A DNA stretch of 46,582 nt from Deltaproteobacteria bacterium TL4. Its GTDB lineage: Bacteria > SAR324 > NAC60-12. Below the pieces are notes generated by a model, which was not told the DNA's origin, ran no database searches, and saw nothing but the letters and a program-made list of their open reading frames with translations. Shown piece after piece: positions 13,494 to 27,172 of this stretch. How positions within the stretch are numbered: position 1 is the stretch's first letter; each line of letters starts with the position of its first letter. Made by a program: the position numbers and the translations under genes. The stretch covers positions 1 through 46,582 of the forward strand of contig JBBCAX010000135.1 in the NCBI GenBank assembly GCA_051382335.1. The letters are read 5' to 3'.

Positions 13494-13813
13494 TGCCTTC
13501 GTTTACTTCCATTTGAGTCAGTAAGGATGGCTTGGCTTATTTGACCGTGAAACGCGGTTCGCAGCAGCAGTTGCGCTATTTTGCTTTGGTCTCCCCTTTA
13601 AAATCTCCTAAGCCGTATCCTGACTGATCCATCAAAAAGTGAGTAAAGCGAGGGATAAAAACGTCATTCAAGCCCTCATCTTCTACCAAGTCCAAGAACT
13701 CTGTGGAATGATTCCACGTTGACTTTCCTTGATAAAAAACCACGGGGATAATCGCTTTAAGCCTTTGTTGGTCCGGTGTTTCTTTGAACGAGTTATCCCA
13801 AATCCGGCACAGG

Positions 13814-13918
13814 TATAGTGCTCAAGATAAGTTTTGTCCTGGGAGCGAGGGCGTCCCGCCCTCCGGTGAGGGCAAGATGCCCTCGCTCCCAGGGAAAAAA
13901 CTTTCCTGGACAGCTATA
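13814..13918. mobile_element. MITE family A, copy 3, with TA target-site duplication
   Basis: Removing it restores cacaggtacttgag, colinear with the intact paralog (cacatatatttgag). Confidence 0.9.
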
Positions 13919-13924
13919 CTTGAG

Positions 13925-14497: not shown

Positions 14498-15508
14498 CTA
14501 CAATAGTTGCTGTTTTAGTTGTTCAAGCATCGACTCTAATTCCTCCATTGTTTTCGCCATCAACGCTTCTTTTGAGTTCTGAGTTTGCTTAAGCACTAAT
14601 TGAAAAGCTCTAACCTGTCCAATCAAGTCACCTTTCTCCAGTCCTTCTTCTCGTCCTTCTTCTCGTCCTTCTTCTCGTCCTTCTTCTCGTCCTTTTTGCA
14701 GTCCTTTTTGCAGTCCTTTTTGCAGTCCTTTTTGCAGTCCTTCTTCTCTGCCTTCTTTTCTGCCTTCAAGCTTTCCCATGCCATAAGACGATTCCACCAT
14801 ACTTGCCTGATAATGCAAATCATCAACATAAGACTCATAAGTGGCTCTTTCCTCCTCAGGAAGTTTCATAATATCCAATTTGTCTTTTGCTTCTTTGAGT
14901 CCCTTGGCCTGAAATTCCGTTTTGATTTCCTCGTGTTTCAAAAAATAAATCCATTCGTCCAGGGGATCTTTAGCGTGATCATCAAACTGATTCACTTTGA
15001 TCAAATAATATTCAGGATAAATCTCATAAATCTTTTGTTTATGATAAAGTTCCTTTTGACTCTCACTTAATTGAAGCTCATCGCTTTTATGAATTCCCTT
15101 AAATGTCGTGGTTCCCCTATAGACATAATCGGCTCCCTGTCCCAGATCAAAATAAAGGATATTGATCGAAATCACCTTCATGATAGTGGAATAAGGTTCG
15201 GACTCATGAATATGTTCGGTGACGATTCTGGAGGTTCCATATAAGATTCTTTGGAGATAATCCTGTTCTCTTTCGTACTGAACTTCAATGAGAATAATAT
15301 CGCCACGGGAATCTCGAACTTTCAGATCAATTCTGTTAAATTTATCCTTGTCGTGTTTCTTCTCTCCCTCACTTTCCAGAATTTCCAGAATCAGGATCTC
15401 CTCTTTCAAAAGCTCACTCAGAAAGCCTTCCAAAATACTGAAATTCGCTTTGCTTCTTAAAAGGCGTTTCATGGCCCAATCAAAAGTAATCAGCCTTCTT
15501 TTTGCCAT
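14498..15508 (-). CDS. Rpn-family PD-(D/E)XK nuclease/putative transposase (PDDEXK_2-like)
   Basis: FDWAMKRLL, RIDLKV..ILIEVQ, LDEWIYFLK; C-terminal GREEG/GLQKG repeats. Confidence 0.85.
   Translation of the reverse strand: MAKRRLITFDWAMKRLLRSKANFSILEGFLSELLKEEILILEILESEGEKKHDKDKFNRIDLKVRDSRGDIILIEVQYEREQDYLQRILYGTSRIVTEHIHESEPYSTIMKVISINILYFDLGQGADYVYRGTTTFKGIHKSDELQLSESQKELYHKQKIYEIYPEYYLIKVNQFDDHAKDPLDEWIYFLKHEEIKTEFQAKGLKEAKDKLDIMKLPEEERATYESYVDDLHYQASMVESSYGMGKLEGRKEGREEGLQKGLQKGLQKGLQKGREEGREEGREEGREEGLEKGDLIGQVRAFQLVLKQTQNSKEALMAKTMEELESMLEQLKQQLL
14641..14762. repeat. 12-nt coding tandem repeats (GREE and GLQK units)
   Basis: tcgtccttcttc and cagtcctttttg units in tandem. Confidence 0.9.
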
Positions 15509-15728: not shown

Positions 15729-16784
15729 TTACAAAAGTTGTTGTTTCAGTTGCTCCAGCATGGACACTAAATCTTCCATTGTTTTTGCCATCAACGCTTC
15801 TTTTGAATTCTGGGCTTGTTTCAGTATTAATTGAAAGGCTCTGACTTGTCCTATTAAATCACCTTTCTCCAAGCCTTCCTGACGTCCTTCCTGACGTCCT
15901 TCCTGACGTCCTTCCTGACGTCCTTTTTGCAGTCCTTTTTGCAGTCCTTTTTGCAGTCCTTCCTGACGTCCTTTTTGCAGTCCTCGTTGTTCCCCTTCTA
16001 TTCGTAGTTGTTCCGCGGCATTCATGATTTTTTCTCCTAATTTTTGTGAGTGCGCTTCTTGCGCGATCGTTTGTTGGACTTCTTGAACCGAAACACCTTC
16101 AATGTTCATTAAGTATATCATGAAAAATATTTCATAATCAATGCCTTCATTTGCTTCCATTTGAGTCAGTAAACGCGCAAAGCGGCTGAGTGCCTTTTTT
16201 ATCTGACCGTGAAATGACGTTCGGAGTAACAGTTGCGCGATTTGGGCTTTAGTCTCCCCTTTAAAATCTGCTAATCCAGATCTTGATTGATCAATCAAAA
16301 AGTGAGCGAATCGCGGAATGAAAACAGCATTCAAGCCATCCTGCTCTACTAAATCCAGGAACTCTGTAGAAGGGGTCCAGACGGACTTCCCCTGATAAAA
16401 AACCGTTGGGATAATGGCTTTTAGCTTTTGTTGATCGGGATGCTCCTTAAACGAGTTATCCCAAATCCGGCACATATATTTGAGTAAACGGAATCTGACC
16501 CATTTATCAGGAGAGGACTGGTGCTCAAACAGCAAATAAACAAGCACTTCCCGTTGGGTGTTTTGGAGCTCAACCTGAAACAACAAATCCGATTCACTGG
16601 CTTGGTATTCCTCATCAATGAAGGCCTTTTCAATCAATCTCAAGGAACTCCAGTCGAGTTTTTCCACCAACTCCGAGGGCAGATAACTCTGAAGAAAACT
16701 CGCGGCTTCCTTGGTATCAGAAAAGACCGTTTTGAAAAGCTTGTCGTGTGGGTTATGAATTGTGTCTTGAGTGGATTTTTTCAT
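15729..16784 (-). CDS. Rpn-family recombination-promoting nuclease (YhgA/Transposase_31-like)
   Basis: HNPHDKLFK, SDLLF, YLLFEHQS, RLLKYM, IIPTVFYQG..W; ATG at 16784 preferred over the track's 16853. Confidence 0.88.
   Translation of the reverse strand: MKKSTQDTIHNPHDKLFKTVFSDTKEAASFLQSYLPSELVEKLDWSSLRLIEKAFIDEEYQASESDLLFQVELQNTQREVLVYLLFEHQSSPDKWVRFRLLKYMCRIWDNSFKEHPDQQKLKAIIPTVFYQGKSVWTPSTEFLDLVEQDGLNAVFIPRFAHFLIDQSRSGLADFKGETKAQIAQLLLRTSFHGQIKKALSRFARLLTQMEANEGIDYEIFFMIYLMNIEGVSVQEVQQTIAQEAHSQKLGEKIMNAAEQLRIEGEQRGLQKGRQEGLQKGLQKGLQKGRQEGRQEGRQEGRQEGLEKGDLIGQVRAFQLILKQAQNSKEALMAKTMEDLVSMLEQLKQQLL
15873..15983. repeat. 12-nt coding tandem repeats (GRQE and GLQK units)
   Basis: ccttcctgacgt and cctttttgcagt units. 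Confidence 0.9.
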
Positions 16785-16908
16785 GAGAAAGTCTCGTCTG
16801 GTTTCGATATCAGGATACCTCAGCAACGTACCTAAACACCACATACCAAACAAGGCAAATATTCCTTAAATAAGGACATTAAAGGAGACGATGTCCTCGT
16901 ATTCCCAA

Positions 16909-16975
16909 GTAGGGTGCCGCTTAAGCGCAGCGAGCGCACCACCGTAGGGTGGCGCTTAAGCGCAGCGAGCGCACC
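16909..16975 (+). repeat. Two tandem GTAG-family REPs
   Basis: gtagggtg(c/g)cgcttaagcgcagcgagcgcacc at 16909-16940 and 16944-16975. Confidence 0.88.
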
Positions 16976-17121
16976 AAAACCTGATTTTATTCGTACCCTC
17001 TTGAAACTCGTTTAAGCCGGGACACCTGATGGTAGGCCGGAACTACGTGTTCGGCAAACTCAACGCTCAGAAAAGCGGGGCCTGTAATCCCCGCCTACCA
17101 ATGTTCCGTTTTAAGGGGGTA

Positions 17122-17424
17122 GCCGTCCAAACACAATGCAAATGATCCGGTAACAACACCCAGGCATTGATCTCAAAAGGATAATTTTCTCTTGTTTTCA
17201 CAATCATAGACCGTAACATCTCCCGAAAAATCGGTTCCGTTAAGAACGGTCTCCGTTGATATGTCACCACGGTAAAAAAGTAGGTATAATGCTCAAGATA
17301 AGTTTTGTCCTGGGAGCGCAGGCGTCCCGCCCGCTTTTGCGGGCAAGATGCCCGCGCTCCCAGGGAAAAAATTTTCCTGGACAGCTATACTTCCCGTTTG
17401 TTTCCATCGACGATAATTCGACAT
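17122..17424 (-). pseudogene. rayT: REP-associated tyrosine transposase (RAYT/TnpA-REP) remnant, MITE-interrupted and 3'-truncated
   Basis: Excising 17285-17389 (keeping one TA) gives MSNYRRWKQTGSTYFFTVVTYQRRPFL...FEINAWVLLPDHLHCVWT with the HUH motif; GGAGAG RBS upstream; flanked by REPs in opposite orientation. Confidence 0.85.
17285..17389. mobile_element. MITE family A, copy 4, inserted at TA in the RAYT gene
   Basis: Same arms as 13814..13918; core variant; removal restores the RAYT reading frame. Confidence 0.9.
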
Positions 17425-17535: not shown

Positions 17536-17676
17536 TCACTGTCCACCTCGGACGCAACGGACATAGTACGTATTAGTCTTATTGCTGCTGTCCACGTAAC
17601 CATTGTAGAAGTACACGTACCACGCATAGCTCGTAAGGTTAGCGTCGGCAGTGGACGACCAATAGTACGACGACTC
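17536..17676 (-). repeat. DGR variable repeat VR1
   Basis: 141-nt match to TR 19483..19623 with 15 mismatches, all at TR adenines (coding strand). Confidence 0.97.
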
Positions 17677-17973
17677 TGTATTGGGAAAATAAGTTGTATT
17701 GATCGCTGGGCTGTAAGTAGAAGTATCCACAATAGATTCAAGTTCACGGTAATGCGGCAGTCGCCAGTCAGTTTTTCCTCCCAAATTCAAGGCTTCACAG
17801 TAATTCAAGGCCGCTTCCCAGGTGCGGGTAACCCCATCATCTTGTTTTTGCCACACTAAATGAGTATTGTTATCTCTGACAGTTTCATTGCCGTTATCCG
17901 TGTATCCCGCATAAACGGGAGTCGTCATTCCCAGCACCAGCATTCCTGTGATCATAATATTTCTGAGTTTCAT
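17536..17973 (-). CDS. DGR target 1: secreted single-domain DUF1566 (Lcl C-terminal, C-type-lectin-like) protein
   Basis: Signal peptide MKLRNIMITGMLVLGMTTPVYA; YTDNG..LVWQK..WEAALNYC..DWRLP..EL..YWSST..YVRCVR; AAGGA RBS before ATG 17973 (track starts at 17988). Confidence 0.9.
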   Translation of the reverse strand: MKLRNIMITGMLVLGMTTPVYAGYTDNGNETVRDNNTHLVWQKQDDGVTRTWEAALNYCEALNLGGKTDWRLPHYRELESIVDTSTYSPAINTTYFPNTESSYYWSSTADANLTSYAWYVYFYNGYVDSSNKTNTYYVRCVRGGQ

Positions 17974-17984
17974 AATTTTTTCCT

Positions 17985-19511
17985 TCATTTAGGTTTATCC
18001 ATAAAAACCATTTCTGTGATCACCCGTTTTTTTAAACCCGGACGATAATATCCTTCTTCTCCCACCACCAACCAGGATAAATTCAGGCTCAACGCCCGTT
18101 GTTTGTATAAACGCAAAAGCTTCAGAGGAAAGCCACATCTCCCTATTTTCCTCACCTTGCAGATTTCCAATTTCAATCCAAACAGTTTTGATACCCTCTC
18201 CGCTTCCTCCTCATAAAACTCACAAAATTTACCTACCTGGAAAAAGATCAGGTAGGAGGAAAAACGTTGTTTAAACCAGCGATACTGGGATAACAGGTTC
18301 AGAGGAACATAGGCAGGTTCGTACAGGGGGATTAATTTTTTGTCATCCCCTACCCGAAAAATCCATCCTAACCAAGAATATTGTTCCCACAAGGATTGAA
18401 TCAGATTCCAGGAATCCGCCTGCTGGAAATGCCCCAGGTACGAAGCCAGCATTTGTCGGAGTTCATTCCTCTGTTCCTGTTTCAGACAGAGATGCAGGTA
18501 TTTCTGCTTCCCTATCCCCTTTTGCTGGATCATTTTCCTTTTTGTCTCCACCACCTTCACATGAAAGTTTTCGACCACTCGGTGTCGTACCAATTTGTAT
18601 TGAGGACGCACGATGTATCCCAAAAAATCGGATCCTTCGCTCACTCGTTTCAGGATTACCCCTGGCTTGATCTGCAATTCCAAACGCTTTAACAGAAACT
18701 CTTCAATGACTTCTTGCCAGTGTAATAATTCTTCACGGTCTTCACTCAGCAGAATAAAATCATCCATATATCGCAGATAAAAACGGCATTTCAACTGATG
18801 TTTTACAAATTGATCAAGTTCATTGAGATACACATTGGCAAAAAACTGGGAGGTTAAGTTTCCAATGGGTAACCCCTTGTTGATTCCCGACTGAAACAAA
18901 GTTTTATGAGGAGGAATCTTTTCCAGTAATCCAGGAACCCCTTTGTAAAAATAATCGCGAGTGCAGTCATGAAAAAGAATCCGCGCTGTCAAGCCCAGTA
19001 ACAAAGGGTCTTCCAACTTTCCTTGAATCAGTTCAAACAATATTCCACGATCAACGCTCATAAAAAATCCTCGAATATCCAGTTGCAGGAACCATCCTGG
19101 AATCCGATTTCCACGGGAAACCCTAGCCATAAAGGACTGAAGACGCTCAACGGCCGCATGGGTTCCCTTGTTTTTACGGCAAGCATAGGAATCAAAAATA
19201 AACTTCGGTTCCCAGATTGCTTCCAGGCGCGGCACCAACAGATGATGCACCACACGGTCACGAAAGTTAGCGGCAAAGACCTCCCTAAGTTTGGGATCAG
19301 TGACTACAAAACACAGAGATCGGGATGGCTCATAAAAGCCTTGTTCAAGGGATTCCTCCAATTGAAACAGATTTCCAAAAAGATCTGCTTCAAATCTTAG
19401 GGTATTGATGGTTCCACGTTTACGTTTGCGGCATGAATAATACGCTTCATACAGCGAACGAAACGAAAATAAACCATCCAAATCACTTTCCACCTCGGAC
19501 GCAACGGACAT
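17985..19511 (-). CDS. DGR reverse transcriptase with C-terminal MutS-domain-I-like extension
   Basis: KLREVFAANFRDRVVHH, SYACRKNKGTHAA, LQLDIRGFF, GLPIGNLTSQFFANVYL, YLRYMDDF, DFLGY; C-terminal LIFFQVGKFCEFYEEEAERVSKLFGL..CGFP; exact start uncertain (overlaps TR). Confidence 0.95.
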   Translation of the reverse strand: MSVASEVESDLDGLFSFRSLYEAYYSCRKRKRGTINTLRFEADLFGNLFQLEESLEQGFYEPSRSLCFVVTDPKLREVFAANFRDRVVHHLLVPRLEAIWEPKFIFDSYACRKNKGTHAAVERLQSFMARVSRGNRIPGWFLQLDIRGFFMSVDRGILFELIQGKLEDPLLLGLTARILFHDCTRDYFYKGVPGLLEKIPPHKTLFQSGINKGLPIGNLTSQFFANVYLNELDQFVKHQLKCRFYLRYMDDFILLSEDREELLHWQEVIEEFLLKRLELQIKPGVILKRVSEGSDFLGYIVRPQYKLVRHRVVENFHVKVVETKRKMIQQKGIGKQKYLHLCLKQEQRNELRQMLASYLGHFQQADSWNLIQSLWEQYSWLGWIFRVGDDKKLIPLYEPAYVPLNLLSQYRWFKQRFSSYLIFFQVGKFCEFYEEEAERVSKLFGLKLEICKVRKIGRCGFPLKLLRLYKQRALSLNLSWLVVGEEGYYRPGLKKRVITEMVFMDKPK

Positions 19512-19623
19512 AGTTCGTATTAGTCTTATTGTTGTTGTTCACGTTACCATTGTTGAAGTTCACGTTCCACGCATTGCTCGTATTGTTAGCGTTGGTAGTG
19601 GACGACCAATAGTTCGACGACTC
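19483..19623 (-). ncRNA. DGR template repeat (TR)
   Basis: Between avd and RT; in VR frame reads ESSNYWSSTTNANNTSNAWNVNFNNGNVNNNNKTNTNYVRCVRGGK* with 16 AAC/AAT codons. Confidence 0.96.
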
Positions 19624-19627
19624 ATTT

Positions 19628-19724
19628 CGTCCATTCACTTGTTCGGGCTTTCGCCCCACCTTCTTCCGATCCCGAAAGTACGAAAAAATGTATGATTATC
19701 CCCTAAATCAGGGGGGAATGGACG
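19628..19724 (-). ncRNA. Putative structured 5' leader of the DGR TR-RNA
   Basis: 9-bp closing pair cgtccattc(19628-36)/gaatggacg(19716-24) enclosing GGGC-GAAA-GCCC (19645-56) and cccct/agggg (19700-14) hairpins. Confidence 0.55.
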
Positions 19725-19754
19725 CACAGTGATCTTAAGCACGCTCATCAGCCA

Positions 19755-20126
19755 TCAAGTGACTGGTGATTCCGGCTTTTTCCCTTTTTGGCTTTTCAGC
19801 CATCCCTCACTCTGCTTACAAATATCGGTTATCAGGTGAGCGGCCTGTTGAAATTGAGCAAAGCTCTTAAACGCCTTGATCTCCTTGCCAATCAGCAAAG
19901 TGGTCTTCATGGCTTCACTTTGGTTTCTTAATTCAGTCAAGCTGGCATATTTATCCTGTTCCGAATTTGCCTTGATGACACTAGTCACCAATTGACGTGA
20001 AAGTTCACGCATATCCTGACCAATGGAGTATTTATGATAGCGAGCGAAATCCCTGACCATGTTTTCAATCAAAACAGCCAATTCCATGGTTTTTTTATAA
20101 ATCGGTAAATTTTCGTAATAAGCCAT
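19755..20126 (-). CDS. avd: DGR accessory variability determinant (Avd-like four-helix bundle)
   Basis: 123 aa, basic; LPIYKK..F.RYHKYSIG..R pattern and terminal GW; position upstream of TR-RT. Confidence 0.85.
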   Translation of the reverse strand: MAYYENLPIYKKTMELAVLIENMVRDFARYHKYSIGQDMRELSRQLVTSVIKANSEQDKYASLTELRNQSEAMKTTLLIGKEIKAFKSFAQFQQAAHLITDICKQSEGWLKSQKGKKPESPVT

Positions 20127-20128
20127 AT

Positions 20129-20443
20129 TTATTTGACAAGCCTGATGATTTCAGTAATGTCGCGTTCCTTGTCAGCAGCTTGTAAAGCAATTGCCACGGA
20201 GTGCCCGCCACGCAGCAGTTTACCCACATAGGCATCCAAACCTGACAGAGGAAAACCTCCAATCACTATGGGTAATTGAATCGTACCTGCCATATTTAGT
20301 TTTAGTCCCGTAATCGCGGAAACGCTATGTGCGTCTTCGCCTATGACTTGCATAAAGACTCCTACCTGCATCAATAAGATACAGTCTTGAACACTTTCCT
20401 TGAGTTCCTGATAACGTTTTGCTAATTTTTCAGAAAATACCAT
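20129..20443 (-). CDS. Standalone MutS domain I-like (MSL-type) DGR accessory protein
   Basis: DCILLMQVGVFMQVIGEDAHSVSAITGLKL..GGFPLSGLDAYVGKLLRGGHSVAIALQ matches the MutS N-terminal pattern; GAAGGAGG RBS before ATG 20443. Confidence 0.8.
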   Translation of the reverse strand: MVFSEKLAKRYQELKESVQDCILLMQVGVFMQVIGEDAHSVSAITGLKLNMAGTIQLPIVIGGFPLSGLDAYVGKLLRGGHSVAIALQAADKERDITEIIRLVK

Positions 20444-20455
20444 TATTCCTCCTTC

Positions 20456-20513: not shown

Positions 20514-20653
20514 TCACTGTCCACCTCGGACGCAACGGACATAGTACGTACTAGTCTTATTGCTGTAGTTCACGCGACCATAGCCGAAGTACACGTACCA
20601 CGCATAGCTCGTATCGTTAGCGTAGGTAGTGGACGACCAATAGTACGACGACT
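20514..20653 (-). repeat. DGR variable repeat VR2
   Basis: 140-nt match to TR with 16 mismatches, all at TR adenines. Confidence 0.97.
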
Positions 20654-23600
20654 TTGTATTGAGAAAATAAGTTGTATTGATCGCTGGATTATACCTTCCA
20701 ACATTTACAATGCTTATGAGTTGACGACGATTGGGCAACGTCCAATCGGTGTAGCCTCCCAAGGACAGATTATCACAATATGTTCCGGCGGCTGACCAGG
20801 TATAAGTACTGTTGTTATCTTCTTTTTGCCACATCAGCCCTGTTACATTATCCGTGATGGTGCTGTTGCCATTGTCAGTGTAAGAAGGGGTGTTTTGCGT
20901 ATAATCGTGGTCTTCTCCAAAAGTCGTGGTATAGGAAGTTGTTTGTCCGGTATCTGGTATCGCCTGATAATCGTTGATACCGACACTGGCGGCACTGGAA
21001 CTTTCTCCCCAATTATTCATGCTGAACGCCAGCAGAGAGGTAGCCAGGGAGGGCAAAACCGTATTACTGGAGAAGGTGTAAGTATAAGTGGCACTGCCAT
21101 TGGCTGTAATTTGGGTGATGGCAGTTTCGCTTTGTTTGGTCGTGCTGCTGCTGCCCCAATAAAGCGTGTAATGGGAGATATTTGACTCATCACTGGCTTT
21201 GCTGATCGTCACATCGCCTCCGACTCTTCCCCAGCGGCCATCGGTATCTGTAAAAGCCACACTGGTTGCTGTAACTGTGGGGGCAGCATCATTATCAGCG
21301 TTGGTCACACTCACCAAACTTGCGGCAAGCGAGCCATAACCGCTGGTATCACTTGTGCTGGAAAGACTCACCGAAATAGTGTAGGTGATATTGCCATCCT
21401 GTACCGCGTCATCCACGCCTGTGACGATCACCGTCTGATTGGTGTTCCAGTCTGAAGCGGTATAGGTGAGACTGGCGGGCGAAACCGTGCCTTCCGCTGT
21501 TTTGCTCGAAACCACGCTCAACACAACATTGGCCGTGGGTTGGCTATTAAGTTTGACAGTAAAAGTAGCAGTTCCACCAGCTTCAGTCGTGTTGCCGCTG
21601 ATGGCGCTGATGACGAAACCTGGTGAATCATTATCTGTATTGGTGACGGCAACATCATCAGGATTCAACGAGGCATAACCGCTGGTGTCCAGGGTATTGC
21701 CAGTATTGAGGGTGAGTTGAACCGTGTAGCTTTGATTGCCATCGGCAATGTCGTCGTTTACGCCTGTGACTGTGATGGTTTGGTTAGCGTTCCAGTTGGT
21801 GGAGGAGAAAGTTATGCTGGATGGCGAGACAGTTCCTTCGGTCACATCCGATGTGACCACGTCAATCACGACATTGGCTGTGGGTTCACTAGTCAGTTTC
21901 ACTGTGAAAGTGGCCGTTCCTCCCGCTTCGCTTGTGTTGCCGCTGATGACGCTGATGATAAAGCCTGCGGATTCTCCCAGATCGGTATTGGTGACGGCAA
22001 CATCGTCAGGATTGAGTGCTGAATAACCGCTGATATCGGTTGTGGCTTTGGTATTGATGGTGAGTTGGATAGTAAAACTTTGGTTGCCATCGGCAATGTC
22101 GTCATTGACGCCTGTGACTGTGATGGTTTGGTTAGCATTCCAGTTGGTGGAAGTGAAGGTCAGAGATGCTGTTGAAACGGTTCCTTCAGTGGTATCAGAC
22201 GTTGCCACGTCAATTACGACATTGCCCGTAGGTTCGTACATAAGTTTGACAGTAAATGACGCGCTCGAACCATCTTCCGCTGTGTTTCCACTGATGGCGC
22301 TAATAGTGAACCCGGGGTGGTCGTCGTCAATGTTGGTCACAGAGACAGTAGAGGGGGGCAACAAGGCATAACCACTATTATCCAGAGTGCCGACCGTGTT
22401 GAGGGTGAGTTGGATGGTGTAGCTTTGGTTGCCATCAATGACATCATCATTAACTCCGGTTACGGTAACCGTCTGATTGGCATTCCAGTTATCTGAGGTA
22501 AAGATCAGGGAGGAGGGAGAAACGGAGCCTTCAGAAGGATCAGTGCTAACGATAGCCACCACAACATCGCCTGTAGGCTCGGTATTGATTTTAATGGTAA
22601 AGGTGGCGGTTCCGCCTTTTTCGGTGGTCAGGCCGCTGAGCGCGCTGATTCTGAAGCCTGGAAGTTCGTTGTCCTCGTTGATCACGGTAACACTTTCAAG
22701 ACTTAACTGATGGTAGCCGGGATCCTGACTCGTGGTGTTTCCAAAAAGGATCGAAACCCTTTGATTGCCGTCCTCTTCCGAATCGTCGATGCCAGTGAGG
22801 GTGACGGTTTGAGGAGCGTTCCAATTCAGCGGAGTGAAGGTCAGGGTTTGCGGAAAGACTGTGACTTCCGTCGTATCACCGCTGGAAAGGGAAAGGGTAA
22901 CTTCCGCGGTAGGCGCGACATTCAAGCGCACCGTGAAGGTCGCGGTTTCTCCAAATTCATTGGTATTGCCACTGACCGCGCTCACGGTGATCCCGGGTGT
23001 TTCATTATCAATGTTTTCAACCTGGACATCCTCAGGATCCATACCCTTGTAAACGGTATCCTCACTAACCGCGGCGGACAGGACGATGTGATAACGCTGA
23101 TTGCCGTCCGCGGCGGCGTCATCCACACCTTGAACCGTCGCTGTTTGCGGGGTTTCCCAATTGTCAGGAGTGAAACGGAGTTCCTTTTGGAGGATGACAC
23201 CTTCAGCGGCGTTATCACTGGCTAAAGGCACAATTACATCCGCAGTCGGCTGGCTGTGAATCTGAACCGTGAAGGAGGCGGTTTGACCGGATTCTGAGGT
23301 TTTTCCGCTGATAGGGCCAACCGTAAACCCAGGTGAATCGTCATCCACATTGACGACTTTGACATCGTCAGGATTGAGCGTTTGATAATCAGCGTCTTTG
23401 GTAACGACTGTTCCCAGAATCACAGCGTAGCGTTTTTCTCCATCCGCGACGGAGTCATCAACACCAGTGACCATGACGATTTGTTGGGTGCTCCAGTTTT
23501 CCGCGGTGAAGGTCAATTGGGAAGTGGAAACCGTGCCCTCGGTCACCTTGCTGCTGGAAACCGGGAGGACAACGTCATGAGTTGGGATTTGTTTGAGTTT

Positions 23601-23786
23601 GACCGTAAACGTGGCATAAGTTCCGGTTTCCGAGGTTTTGTTGCTGATTGGACTGATGTCAAAGCCCAACGCTCCTGGAATGGGCGTGGGTTCCTGATCA
23701 AAATACTCGTCCTGTAAGCAGGAAGGGATGACTCCCAGCATGAAGAGGAGGAGGAAAAAGAGGTTTGTGAATTGTTGGTTTTTCAT
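20514..23786 (-). CDS. DGR target 2: putative surface lipoprotein with seven Calx-beta-like repeats, a beta-sandwich linker and a C-terminal DUF1566 domain
   Basis: Signal/lipobox-like LLLFMLGVIPS-C; 7x GF.IS.ISG.T.E.G.TATFTVKL..NW...QT.TVTGV.D..DGNQ; IPDTGQ..YTDNG..LMWQK..YWSST..YVRCVRGGQ. Confidence 0.9.
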   Translation of the reverse strand: MKNQQFTNLFFLLLFMLGVIPSCLQDEYFDQEPTPIPGALGFDISPISNKTSETGTYATFTVKLKQIPTHDVVLPVSSSKVTEGTVSTSQLTFTAENWSTQQIVMVTGVDDSVADGEKRYAVILGTVVTKDADYQTLNPDDVKVVNVDDDSPGFTVGPISGKTSESGQTASFTVQIHSQPTADVIVPLASDNAAEGVILQKELRFTPDNWETPQTATVQGVDDAAADGNQRYHIVLSAAVSEDTVYKGMDPEDVQVENIDNETPGITVSAVSGNTNEFGETATFTVRLNVAPTAEVTLSLSSGDTTEVTVFPQTLTFTPLNWNAPQTVTLTGIDDSEEDGNQRVSILFGNTTSQDPGYHQLSLESVTVINEDNELPGFRISALSGLTTEKGGTATFTIKINTEPTGDVVVAIVSTDPSEGSVSPSSLIFTSDNWNANQTVTVTGVNDDVIDGNQSYTIQLTLNTVGTLDNSGYALLPPSTVSVTNIDDDHPGFTISAISGNTAEDGSSASFTVKLMYEPTGNVVIDVATSDTTEGTVSTASLTFTSTNWNANQTITVTGVNDDIADGNQSFTIQLTINTKATTDISGYSALNPDDVAVTNTDLGESAGFIISVISGNTSEAGGTATFTVKLTSEPTANVVIDVVTSDVTEGTVSPSSITFSSTNWNANQTITVTGVNDDIADGNQSYTVQLTLNTGNTLDTSGYASLNPDDVAVTNTDNDSPGFVISAISGNTTEAGGTATFTVKLNSQPTANVVLSVVSSKTAEGTVSPASLTYTASDWNTNQTVIVTGVDDAVQDGNITYTISVSLSSTSDTSGYGSLAASLVSVTNADNDAAPTVTATSVAFTDTDGRWGRVGGDVTISKASDESNISHYTLYWGSSSTTKQSETAITQITANGSATYTYTFSSNTVLPSLATSLLAFSMNNWGESSSAASVGINDYQAIPDTGQTTSYTTTFGEDHDYTQNTPSYTDNGNSTITDNVTGLMWQKEDNNSTYTWSAAGTYCDNLSLGGYTDWTLPNRRQLISIVNVGRYNPAINTTYFLNTKSSYYWSSTTYANDTSYAWYVYFGYGRVNYSNKTSTYYVRCVRGGQ

Positions 23787-24386: not shown

Positions 24387-24457
24387 TTTTTCTCCTTATT
24401 TAGAATGATTCTTTCCTCAGGGAACAAGGAAATTCAAAAATTCCATCGGGTTTTAGT

Positions 24458-24670
24458 GGTGCGCTCGCTGCGCTTAAGCGGCACCCTACTTTTGGTGCGC
24501 TCGCTGCGCTTAAGCGGCACCCTACTTTTGGTGCGCTCGCTGCGCTTAAGCGGCACTCTACTTGGTGCGCTCGCTGCGCTTAAGCGGCACCCTACGGCGG
24601 TGCGCTCGCTGCGCTTAAGCGGCACCCTACCTTTTTATGGTGCGCTCGCTGCGCTTAAGTGGCACCCTCC
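24458..24670 (-). repeat. Tandem array of six 32-nt GTAG-family REPs
   Basis: Units start at 24458, 24494, 24530, 24564, 24599, 24639; spacers 4, 4, 2, 3, 8 nt. Confidence 0.92.
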
Positions 24671-26857
24671 TTACCATTTTTTGTTAAAGGAGAGTTGGAC
24701 TTTGCCTTGGGGGTGAACATCCCAGTGCCAGGAAATGGCGGAGGATGAAGGGGGTTCGGGTTCATCCCAATAAAGCCAGCCGGTCAAGGCGGCGAGTCCG
24801 AGGGTTAGACCTAAATATCCCTGTGTTTGTTCCTTCATTGTGGCAATTTCAGCCATTTTCTCATCTTCTTGCGTTCGATAGGCTTGAGCGTCATGGAGCG
24901 TTTTCGCGGTCTTGATCTTGTCACTGAGTTGTTGTCTCTCGGTGTTCGCGTTTTCCACCGCGGTGACTGTGGCATAAAGCAAACCGGTTGAGATCAGCGT
25001 TACCCCCAACGAACTTCGCCACTTCCATTTCCAGCTTTGGCGGGCTTGGTAATAGTCGGTGAGTTCCAAGTGAATTTCCTGAGAGAAGGTTTCTCCCGGT
25101 TTCAAAACAAGGGCTTGCTTTTGTTCCACATATTTATGGCTGGAGTGGGTGACGTAGAGTTCATAGGTGCCTGACTCCACCTCCAAAGCAAAAATTCCCC
25201 GATCAGGAGAGTTATCAGTTTTGTTCCAGGATTCCTTACCGATGAGATTGACCACAAAATGACCATCTTCGTCCTCAACTAAAGCATCCCGAATTATTGT
25301 AAGTTTCAATGAAGAGGGTCTCAGTTCCATTTTGATGTCAATGAGCGTTTGCTGGTTTGGCAGGATTTCAAAAGATTTTTCAACAGGAACGTACTCCTGA
25401 TGAGTCACTTTGAGGGTGTAAGGGCCGATGGGAAGTTGCTTTTCCTCAACAGGTAAGAATAAGGTTTGAGTCGCGGGGACGTAAGTTCCTCCTGTTAAGG
25501 TAATGACCGATCCTTGAGGACAGCCTCGCAGGGTCAAGCGTCCTTGAATGGGAGCCAAACGGGGAGCTAACGAAACATCCTCAGTGGCAACCTGAAGCTG
25601 TTTTTGGAAAACCTCAAACCCTTCTTTTTCTATTTGAATCTGATGAGGACCTTTGGTGGTTTGCAGCGTGAGTGGAGTGTTTCCCACGACTTGTTGATCG
25701 ACCATGATTTTTGCGCCACCAGGTGTGCTGCCGATGATCAGTTCCGGGATTTTGACCAGGGTCACCTTGTATTTCGTTGTTTTTCCTCCCTGCACCGTTA
25801 GGGTTTTTTCGAGTGTTTCATATTTGGTTTTTTGAATTTTTAATTGATGTGTTCCTTCAGTCACTTGAAGCTTAACCGGGGTTTCTCCTTTGGCAATTCC
25901 CTCCAGAAAGACATGCGCCTGAGCGGGGAGAGTCGTAATTTCCAGGGTTCCAAACCGCTTCAGTTTAGCCTCCAGAAGCGTGTTTTTTATTTGAGGATCG
26001 ACTTCAAGGTTTTGGGTGAAAGGGGCATAGCCTGTTAACCGGATTTCTACCAGATGCCGCCCCGAGGTCAGCTTGAGATCCACCGGAGCTTTTCCAACCG
26101 GTTTTTGATCGACTGAAACTTCAGCGTTATAGGGAGTACTTGTGATTAAGACATTGTAAAGCAACGGAGCAAGCGTCAAATCCAGACGCGTCAACTCGGA
26201 AGAGGTGAGCTTGAAAGTTTGAGTGATACCGAGATTTTCATGACGGAGATCGAGTGTGTGTTCTCCGTAAGGGATGGCTTTTAACAAGGCGGGTGTTTTT
26301 TGTTCCAGCACAATCCCATCCAGGGTAATTTCCGCTTCCGGCGGGGTGGAGGTGAGGAACACTTGTCCTGTCTCCTCAGACGTTGGTTGAGGGGCGTTCT
26401 CGCCTATAACTTTCGCCACCAACTCGGAAATTTTTCCGTTGAGTTGGAAGGTATTGCATTTTTGGCAGTAGTAGGTTTTTACATTCTTGTCTTCCAGACC
26501 GATGCGGGTGACGGTCAATTGGGTATCGTCGCCTTCCCGAATGATCTGCAAACGGAACAAATTTTCCACTTGCAGGATTTCCTGAACCCGTCGAATACAT
26601 TGATCTTCAGTACATTCCTCCGCGTCCAGGGTTTTAAAGGCTTCATCCTGGGCTTGCTCAAATTGTTTTTCGGAAACCAGATTAAACTGGTCGGCCAAAC
26701 GCTCCTGAAACGTATTGAATAAAATGCCTTGCTGCCCCGCGGAAATATCGCCCACCACCGCTAAGGGAAAGAGGGCCGCTTGTTCTTTTTGAGCATAAAC
26801 CGGGTGGGCCAACAGGCTGGATACAAGCACTAAACTGAAATATTTTAAGACGTTCAT
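24671..26857 (-). CDS. Exported multi-PEGA-domain protein with C-terminal hydrophobic segments
   Basis: Signal peptide; repeated STPPEAEITLDG/STPYNAEVSVD/TLPAQAHVFLEG/STPGGAKIMVD..G.TP..L..G.H..GY/F. Confidence 0.85.
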   Translation of the reverse strand: MNVLKYFSLVLVSSLLAHPVYAQKEQAALFPLAVVGDISAGQQGILFNTFQERLADQFNLVSEKQFEQAQDEAFKTLDAEECTEDQCIRRVQEILQVENLFRLQIIREGDDTQLTVTRIGLEDKNVKTYYCQKCNTFQLNGKISELVAKVIGENAPQPTSEETGQVFLTSTPPEAEITLDGIVLEQKTPALLKAIPYGEHTLDLRHENLGITQTFKLTSSELTRLDLTLAPLLYNVLITSTPYNAEVSVDQKPVGKAPVDLKLTSGRHLVEIRLTGYAPFTQNLEVDPQIKNTLLEAKLKRFGTLEITTLPAQAHVFLEGIAKGETPVKLQVTEGTHQLKIQKTKYETLEKTLTVQGGKTTKYKVTLVKIPELIIGSTPGGAKIMVDQQVVGNTPLTLQTTKGPHQIQIEKEGFEVFQKQLQVATEDVSLAPRLAPIQGRLTLRGCPQGSVITLTGGTYVPATQTLFLPVEEKQLPIGPYTLKVTHQEYVPVEKSFEILPNQQTLIDIKMELRPSSLKLTIIRDALVEDEDGHFVVNLIGKESWNKTDNSPDRGIFALEVESGTYELYVTHSSHKYVEQKQALVLKPGETFSQEIHLELTDYYQARQSWKWKWRSSLGVTLISTGLLYATVTAVENANTERQQLSDKIKTAKTLHDAQAYRTQEDEKMAEIATMKEQTQGYLGLTLGLAALTGWLYWDEPEPPSSSAISWHWDVHPQGKVQLSFNKKW

Positions 26858-26966
26858 AGTTCCCCACTAAATTAGCTTGATTGGATGGCATTCGGTTTTT
26901 TCGAGATTGGATGGGAGTTGGTTTTCTGTACAAGTTTCTATTGAACAAATCAAGATTTGTTCGATA

Positions 26967-27070
26967 TATAGATGTTCAGAAAAGTTTTGTCCTGGGAGTG
27001 AGGGCGTCCCGCCCTCCGGTGAGGGCAAGATGCCCTCACTCCCAGGACAAAACTTTCCTTGAGCACTATA
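26967..27070. mobile_element. MITE family A, copy 5
   Basis: Near-identical to 3089 and 9096 copies. Confidence 0.88.
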
Positions 27071-27172
27071 TAGATGTTCAGAAATTAAATTGCGGTAGAG
27101 CAGGCATCCCTGCCTGCACAAACAGGCACGGATGCCTATTCTACCGTGAAATTATTTAAATGCATGTCTGTA
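27069..27172. mobile_element. MITE-like element with family A/C-like termini and GTAG palindromic core
   Basis: tatagatgttca... / ...atttaaatgcatgtctgta; core gtagagcaggcatcc...ggatgcctattctac. Confidence 0.65.

Follow-up and report, generated by a model that had tools for sequence, protein, structure and literature searches.

Among the 372 DGRs surveyed by Wu et al. (PMC5758913), 16 carry a MutS-like gene (MSL), and three related RTs have a MutS_I domain in a C-terminal extension. Table S1 of that work gives all 16 MSL rows and all three RT-MutS_I rows; no row has both, and the RTs of the 16 MSL rows are tail-less. In the accessible text of PMC8632793 and PMC10053308, MSL is mentioned solely as a known accessory gene, and neither MSL nor MutS occurs in PMC6602519 and PMC11661182. 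The functions of the MutS residues concerned are summarized in the available part of a review (PMC3848065): F36A abolishes specific binding of MutS and E38Q abolishes mismatch discrimination, the protein has reader and non-reader subunits, bends DNA through its clamp, and signals repair through its ATPase. Mismatch repair affects at least some DGRs. In Bacteroides, host MutS can erase most DGR events, and deletion of mutS raised the mutagenesis of an Msl-less DGR 5–10 fold (10.1101/2024.11.15.621889). Of the five elements, the accessible part of this preprint assigns Msl to three, and it contains no test of the protein; the two highly active DGRs lack Msl and the three low-activity ones have it, which the authors attribute to transcription. 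The Bordetella DGR did not require mutS, and most DGR RTs function with Avd and without such a tail, according to the sections available of PMC5758913. In the accessible part of PMC12875486, annealing of the cDNA at the lagging strand is supported, and the process by which mutagenized cDNA is installed in the VR and escapes mismatch repair is called "still mysterious". In one engineered system in E. coli, a dominant-negative MutL serves to suppress repair (10.64898/2026.07.21.739853, available part). No double form and no functional test of Msl or of the RT tail was found in the DGR literature searched, subscription papers and bioRxiv supplements lying outside its coverage.

Here we describe a cassette that has both modules. 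It lies in a window of 46,582 nt, by which we mean the whole stretch analyzed (contig JBBCAX010000135.1 of Deltaproteobacteria bacterium TL4, assembly GCA_051382335.1). All its parts are on the minus strand and, as given by the open reading frames and Pfam, run in the order target–msl–avd–TR–RT–target (Table 1).

Table 1. Features of the DGR cassette, with positions counted from the first nucleotide of the window
Feature	Position	Strand	Description
Target gene 1	20514..23786	-	1090 aa; Calx-beta repeats E 8.9e-16 and C-terminal Lcl_C E 1.9e-36 (Pfam)
VR1 core	20521..20653	-	Against TR: 15 A-position and 0 non-A differences over 133 nt
msl, standalone MutS domain I gene	20129..20443	-	104 aa from ATG 20443; F-M-Q at 20348-20356; pI 6.7
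avd	19755..20126	-	123 aa; starts 2 nt past msl stop
TR core	19490..19622	-	AAC-rich; VR similarity continues to about 19468
DGR reverse transcriptase	17985..19511	-	508 aa from ATG 19511; RVT_1 E 3.4e-17; YMDD at 18759-18770
RT C-terminal MutS domain I tail	17988..18314	-	Residues about 400-508; F-C-E at 18219-18227; pI 9.8
Target gene 2	17536..17988	-	150 aa; single Lcl_C domain, Pfam E 4.9e-40
VR2 core	17543..17675	-	Against TR: 14 A-position and 0 non-A differences

The element shows the features expected of a DGR: an RT with YMDD, TR/VR changes at adenines only, VRs at the 3′ end of CLec-type targets, and an avd gene. The TR core of 133 nt has 44 A, and the probability of finding the differences of Table 1 by chance is about 1e-8 for each VR. 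The variable domain of the first target is a C-terminal Lcl_C (DUF1566/CLec2-type), and the ATG of the second target overlaps the stop of the RT. Avd exceeds the Pfam cut-off for bAvd (49.3 bits, cut-off 40) and stays under that of NCBIfam DivGenRetAVD (38.2 bits, cut-off 80). Judged on its sequence, the element is a real, intact-looking DGR. Promoter and terminator scans were at chance level (6 vs 9.0 and 7 vs 7.0, respectively).

A first-pass annotation, made from the letters of the window, had quoted the sequences of both modules and taken them for MutS domain I. Both are found on the minus strand, and both are indeed MutS domain I. PF01624 matches MSL with 50.7 bits (E = 2.4e-13) and residues 407–475 of the RT with 34.7 bits (E = 2.3e-8), in each case above the cut-off of 20.6. 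AlphaFold2 models of the single modules are MutS-like, with a pLDDT of 93.8 for MSL and 89.3 for the tail; among the top listed Foldseek matches, the TMq is 0.86 to Taq and E. coli MutS for the former and about 0.7 to MutS-family structures for the latter. The modules thus have the fold of the E. coli and T. aquaticus proteins (1E3M, 1EWQ) and the same Phe-X-Glu register, at 27–34% identity. No other MutS domain matched, and NCBIfam MutS models gave 25–53 bits against cut-offs of 480–642. Because connector, lever, clamp, and ATPase domains are absent, neither module could run mismatch repair. The annotation had also noted FCE in the RT copy and FMQ in the standalone one, and this difference is confirmed: the Phe-X-Glu finger is retained in the tail and lost in MSL. 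The F-M-Q of MSL aligns on F36-Y37-E38 of E. coli MutS in the HMMER alignment, and the best PDB sequence match of MSL is 1WBD, the MutS E38Q mutant, whose finger it matches.

The MutS_I domain follows the RT thumb directly and in frame, within a single open reading frame. The RT ends in this tail and has 508 aa from the first ATG, as annotated, with a true start that is uncertain by about 10 residues: the ATG at 19511 sits within the 3′ end of the TR, and the in-frame alternatives GTG 19493 or TTG 19481 give a protein of about 500 aa. An artefactual fusion by frameshift or read-through is ruled out by its recurrence, an RT core or thumb being upstream of the domain in 88 of the 150 best matches to the tail profile. 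The msl gene has a ribosome-binding-like AAGGAGG directly upstream of its ATG (20448–20454) and adjoins avd, not the RT. Of 17 loci measured (18 were tried), 16 have the msl stop between -17 and +17 nt from the start of avd, a spacing that points to Avd as the putative partner of MSL. Longer relatives of MSL gave no MSL-Avd or MSL-RT fusion in a search covering lengths of 253–2000 only, which would miss a fusion as short as about 230 aa; the 13 matches among 7996 scored candidates comprised 9 MutS proteins and 4 chimeras that seem to be due to chance. A scan of viral_contigs with the MSL profile confirmed none of 8 pattern matches.

The closest described systems resemble one half of this cassette each. 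The RT-MutS_I DGRs of Wu et al. (NAR 46:11, PMC5758913; Table S1 rows 18, 27, and 28) also have DUF1566/CLec2 targets and a long RT, of about 500 aa and with MutS_I at its end, and two of the three have the order TG-AVD-TR-RT-TG, but no MSL gene is given in their rows, whereas here msl stands between the first target and avd. The MSL DGRs ("Architecture D" of Wu et al.) and Bacteroides Msl share with the window a MutS-domain-I protein that is small and neutral and accompanies avd; the order is TG-MSL-AVD-TR-RT in 6 of Wu's 16 rows, and Phe is kept and Glu lost, as here. The MSL of the window agrees with the description of this gene, being a small standalone MutS-domain-I homolog in a cassette with avd and without HRDC. 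It differs in its length, just under the 112–283 aa of the published proteins (which also have a neutral pI), in the distinct MQVG[VA]FMQ signature of its family, and in ending with domain I, whereas the Bacteroidetes MSLs in Wu's alignment add a C-terminal extension. The annotation's statement that MutS-like accessory genes occur in some DGRs accords with this survey. Its remark that the double architecture was not known to be characterized stands for the literature searched, but it had left unmentioned that the RT-MutS_I fusion was already published. Each part is already known; what is new against the literature searched is their combination, together with the comparative set.

The contrast between the two fingers extends to their families. 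A HMMER search of 1.84 billion proteins with a tail profile gave 261 matches at E ≤ 1e-10 and 2575 at E ≤ 1e-3, the larger set possibly containing MutS domains of unrelated origin; a word-index search with the tail gave only 2 proteins among 103 candidates. An aromatic-x-Glu motif is present in 133 of the 149 proteins scored among the 150 best profile matches (110/118 of the A/B-like and 23/31 of the C-like proteins, in the subclades defined below), counts that are biased upward because the profile already favors E. The first finger residue is F in 86, Y in 50, W in 7, and H in 6 of the 153 rows of these matches, overturning a reading of the first 18 tails by which the Phe was not conserved. 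In the MSL family, F is found in 52/53 and Q in 50/53 sequences, the F-x-Q being equivalent to MutS E38Q. In Wu's alignment, with the register read by eye, every one of the 14 sequences covered, out of the 16 published MSLs, has retained F and none has E. On these counts, the F-x-E versus F-x-Q split is a conserved family-level trait. The families also differ in charge (median pI 10.3 for 18 tails and 6.7 for 32 MSLs) and in rate: mean identity between subclades A and C is 61% for MSL, 52% for the RT core, and 19% for the tail. Tails are basic and fast-evolving; MSLs are neutral and match the RT core in conservation. In a tree of 44 domains, which carries a long-branch warning for subclade C, MSLs (99/96) and tails (98/94) form separate branches, neither of them with host MutS. 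These separate branches and an identity of 27% rule out that either module is a fragment of the host mutS or a recent duplication of the other.

An MSL profile search of species-representative genomes gave 36 loci, all of which have MSL by construction. An RT core is present in 14 of them, and 11 of these RTs share one clade with that of the window (10 show a tail, 1 is cut by a contig end); the other three are unrelated and tail-less, two being on the opposite strand. Six further loci have tail remnants without an RT core. The metagenome loci retrieved with the RT as query allow a fairer estimate of co-occurrence: 12 of 80 are within the tail clade, of which 1 has MSL, 5 do not (the tail being visible in 4), and the remaining 6 are of insufficient length to decide. 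Altogether, MSL, RT core, and tail occur together in 11 loci of other genomes, all of one RT clade. Adenine-specific TR/VR pairs are found in eight of these, and every part is intact in seven (L012, L020, L025, L027, L030, L031, and L047), from Verrucomicrobiota, Planctomycetota, Chloroflexota, Magnetococcales, and Lambdaproteobacteria according to record titles and lineages. By these locus counts, the double form is common in one RT clade.

A quick tree of 84 RT cores places all tail-bearing RTs in this clade (SH-aLRT 99), within which three subclades can be distinguished: A, including the window, with tail and MSL; B, with a tail and without MSL; and C, with a degenerate tail and MSL. Subclade C is the largest MSL-bearing subclade, and its tail has drifted under Pfam detection. 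When 20 tails were scanned for Pfam MutS_I, 8 passed, 1 was just under the cut-off, and 11 had no match, the latter being all 10 of subclade C and that of L047. Conserved columns of Q, G, E, and R still allow the Pfam-negative tails to be aligned, and we infer that these tails, too, have a MutS fold; in subclade C the finger is often W-x-E or C-x-E. In subclade B, the sister cassettes L048, L051, L052, and L056 have the tail, and the interval from target to avd contains no MSL. MSL also stands beside tail-less RTs, at L070 and L071.

The reading that we put first, while holding it somewhat short of probable, is that the two modules do separate jobs on the RT-Avd-RNA complex during installation of the mutagenized cDNA, holding the cDNA:VR heteroduplex and shielding it from host repair. 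The shielding is plausible because deletion of mutS in Bacteroides raised DGR mutagenesis and because this host has MutS and MutL. By this reading, RT-Avd would make adenine-mutagenized cDNA as in other DGRs, and the cDNA would anneal to the VR, probably where the lagging strand has a gap; the resulting heteroduplex would contain about 15 mismatches. The basic tail, tethered to the RT, would then put its aromatic-x-Glu finger into the mismatches, with the RT tether standing in for the missing clamp. As it has no ATPase, the tail would be unable to start repair and would only hold the duplex and cover it against host MutS. MSL, made in step with Avd, neutral, and having a Phe without the Glu as in the nondiscriminating E38Q MutS, would be blind to mismatches and act on Avd/RT as a subunit for docking or as an adaptor, rather than complete a MutS-like dimer. 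In some lineages, either module can be lost.

This division of labor is consistent with the two folds, the separate families, their opposite motifs and charges, the coupling of msl to avd, and the lagging-strand model as given in the accessible part of PMC12875486. Other observations count against it. The modules are isolated domains I without the clamp that bends DNA in MutS, according to the section available of PMC3848065. None of the 10 subclade C tails, often with W-x-E or C-x-E, is detected by Pfam, so that the reading of mismatches may have eroded in this subclade. The accessible text of 10.1101/2024.11.15.621889 has highly active Bacteroides DGRs without Msl, and that of PMC5758913 has a Bordetella DGR without need of mutS; nor did the longer MSL relatives, at lengths of 253–2000, include a fusion with Avd.

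The distribution of the modules also fits a redundancy, in which tail and MSL are one function encoded twice and the double cassettes are those where neither has yet been lost. Subclade B, with a Pfam-detectable tail, has no MSL in the 4/4 cassettes that show both the tail and the target–avd gap; subclade C retains MSL while its tail degenerates; and MSL is found beside tail-less RTs elsewhere (L070 and L071, and Table S1 of PMC5758913). However, this pattern amounts to about one event per subclade, and the degenerate tails remain in frame, with invariant Q27, G45, and R114 and a near-invariant E103 across several phyla. The two families are unlike in charge and motif, and subclade A retains both modules at only 62% RT core identity. 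We regard such a hand-over as unlikely.

Tail and MSL could instead bind each other and constitute a MutS-like unit that is asymmetric, one subunit reading mismatches and the other not, and here the split of the fingers parallels the subunits of MutS (PMC3848065, available part). Moreover, a tail is visible in 10 of the 11 MSL loci with an RT of the tail clade, the remaining one being cut by the contig end, tail remnants are kept in 6/36 MSL loci that lack the RT core, and one database protein (P0135) joins MSL in frame to a tail-like domain. Yet the MSL-tail joins resemble internal deletions, and that of L034 is out of frame. A fast tail and a near-constant MSL are not what one would expect of a shared interface. 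MutS itself dimerizes in its structures via ATPase/HTH and clamp, not domain I. The asymmetric unit that the annotation had suggested is not supported as an obligate one, as each module occurs without the other, msl adjoins avd, and clamp and ATPase are absent; we consider such a unit improbable.

We give a similarly low standing to a role of the tail in reverse transcription itself, where it would grip the mismatched RNA:cDNA hybrid or a structured template RNA and aid processivity, MSL being an unrelated accessory. A strongly basic domain fused straight after the thumb would suit such a role, as would the RNA:cDNA mismatches that occur at template adenines. Against this, most DGR RTs work with Avd and without such a tail (PMC5758913, accessible text), and the Phe-X-Glu contact was defined on DNA duplexes; no evidence for it was found on RNA hybrids. 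It is very unlikely that MSL is a regulator that damps the DGR or disturbs host repair by protein contact and not by DNA binding: its neutral charge and high conservation, and its presence in the low-activity Bacteroides elements, would agree with this, but the Phe finger is retained in all MSL families seen, and the low activity followed transcript levels in the part of the preprint available (10.1101/2024.11.15.621889).

This lineage may even have built, from two captured MutS fingers, its own device for cDNA installation and repair evasion, which we hold to be doubtful. Here a mismatch reader tethered to the RT and a cap coupled to Avd and blind to mismatches would jointly hold the heavily mismatched cDNA:VR heteroduplex and keep host MutS off it. 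One template could then change two targets nearby and as many as five at a distance in a host that remains repair-proficient. Such a device would supply the integration step with a factor encoded by the element itself, and would offer a portable part to raise DGR or retron editing without disabling repair. The value of the element lies in making both the function of Msl and tail and the integration step testable in one construct. The copy of the window has both modules intact and a canonical F-x-E, and would serve for single and double mutants; the clade supplies a natural set of cassettes with tail and MSL, with a tail only, with a degenerate tail and MSL, and with MSL only.

The rest of the genome provides some context. 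It encodes a full-length-type MutS (domains I–IV checked) and MutL. A further DGR, the third of the genome, is on contig C153 and has HRDC and avd, with no MutS_I match. Among 60 relatives of the host, the MSL family was found in only 1, a distribution in keeping with a patchy, mobile element. Contig C34 carries a paralogous double cassette, of the same RT clade as that of the window, which is broken: its avd has lost the 3′ portion, the TR is absent, and the RT lacks roughly its first 55 codons. The TR of the window matches five remote VRs, with changes mostly at adenine positions (A/non-A differences of 13/1 and 17/1 on C34, 16/2 on C53, 19/0 on C187, and 23/4 on C172), so that the cassette probably serves them in trans.

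The template repeat (TR) of the window cassette is matched by five remote variable repeats (VRs) on other contigs of the host genome, two on contig C34 and one each on C53, C187, and C172. Because the changes fall mostly at adenine positions, this sequence pattern suggests that the cassette may diversify all five in trans. Further Lcl_C ends, more diverged, are numerous across other host contigs.

The host genome also carries a second cassette with both MutS_I domains, on C34, whose RT shares 66% identity with the window RT in the core and 48% in the tail. There, avd codon ~72 abuts RT codon ~55 and the TR is gone, through either deletion or an assembly artefact. A third DGR-like cassette, on C153, is unrelated to that of the window; it consists of an FGE-sulfatase target, HRDC, avd, a 341-aa RT, and an AAC-rich TR-like stretch, and the MutS_I domain is absent from it.

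At six loci (L015, L016, L026, L034, L037, and L042) and in three proteins (P0135, P0189, and P0096), the RT core has been lost and the RT tail is joined to msl or to the start of avd. These joins look like recurrent internal deletions; in P0135, MSL and tail are fused in frame. An orphan 32-codon tail fragment (81% identity to RT tail residues 457–488) lies on host contig C123, flanked by unrelated genes.

P0195, a protein of 1329 aa, combines a DarA_C domain with three isolated MutS_I domains, two of them having F-Y-E, showing that clamp-less copies of domain I are in use outside DGRs.

Palindromic REP-like repeat families occupy the flanks of the window DGR region. Two neighbouring genes, presumably Rpn/PD-(D/E)XK transposase-like from their appearance, have in common a 12-nt tandem repeat tail coding for GLQK/GREE units. 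Small genes of foreign look lie within or adjoin the cassettes of L018, L024, L048, and L057; by eye, we liken these to REP-associated tyrosine transposases, a GIY-YIG protein, and a four-helix-bundle protein.

Locations of cassettes, fragments, repeats, and neighbouring genes
Feature	Location	Remark
Second double-MutS_I cassette	L006:7481-13786 (G000 C34)	
Third DGR-like cassette	L008:1116-6344 (G000 C153)	
Orphan tail fragment	L007:5222-5317 (G000 C123:28221-28316)	
REP-like repeats	window 13811-13921, 16905-16979, 17282-17392, 24449-24672, 26964-27074	24449-24672: array of six copies, unit ~36 nt
Neighbouring genes	window 14498-15508, 15729-16853	
Short remnant	window 17067-17270	transposase-like by eye
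Foreign-looking genes	L018:1836-2426, L024:8406-8861, L048:4166-4462, L057:5208-5573
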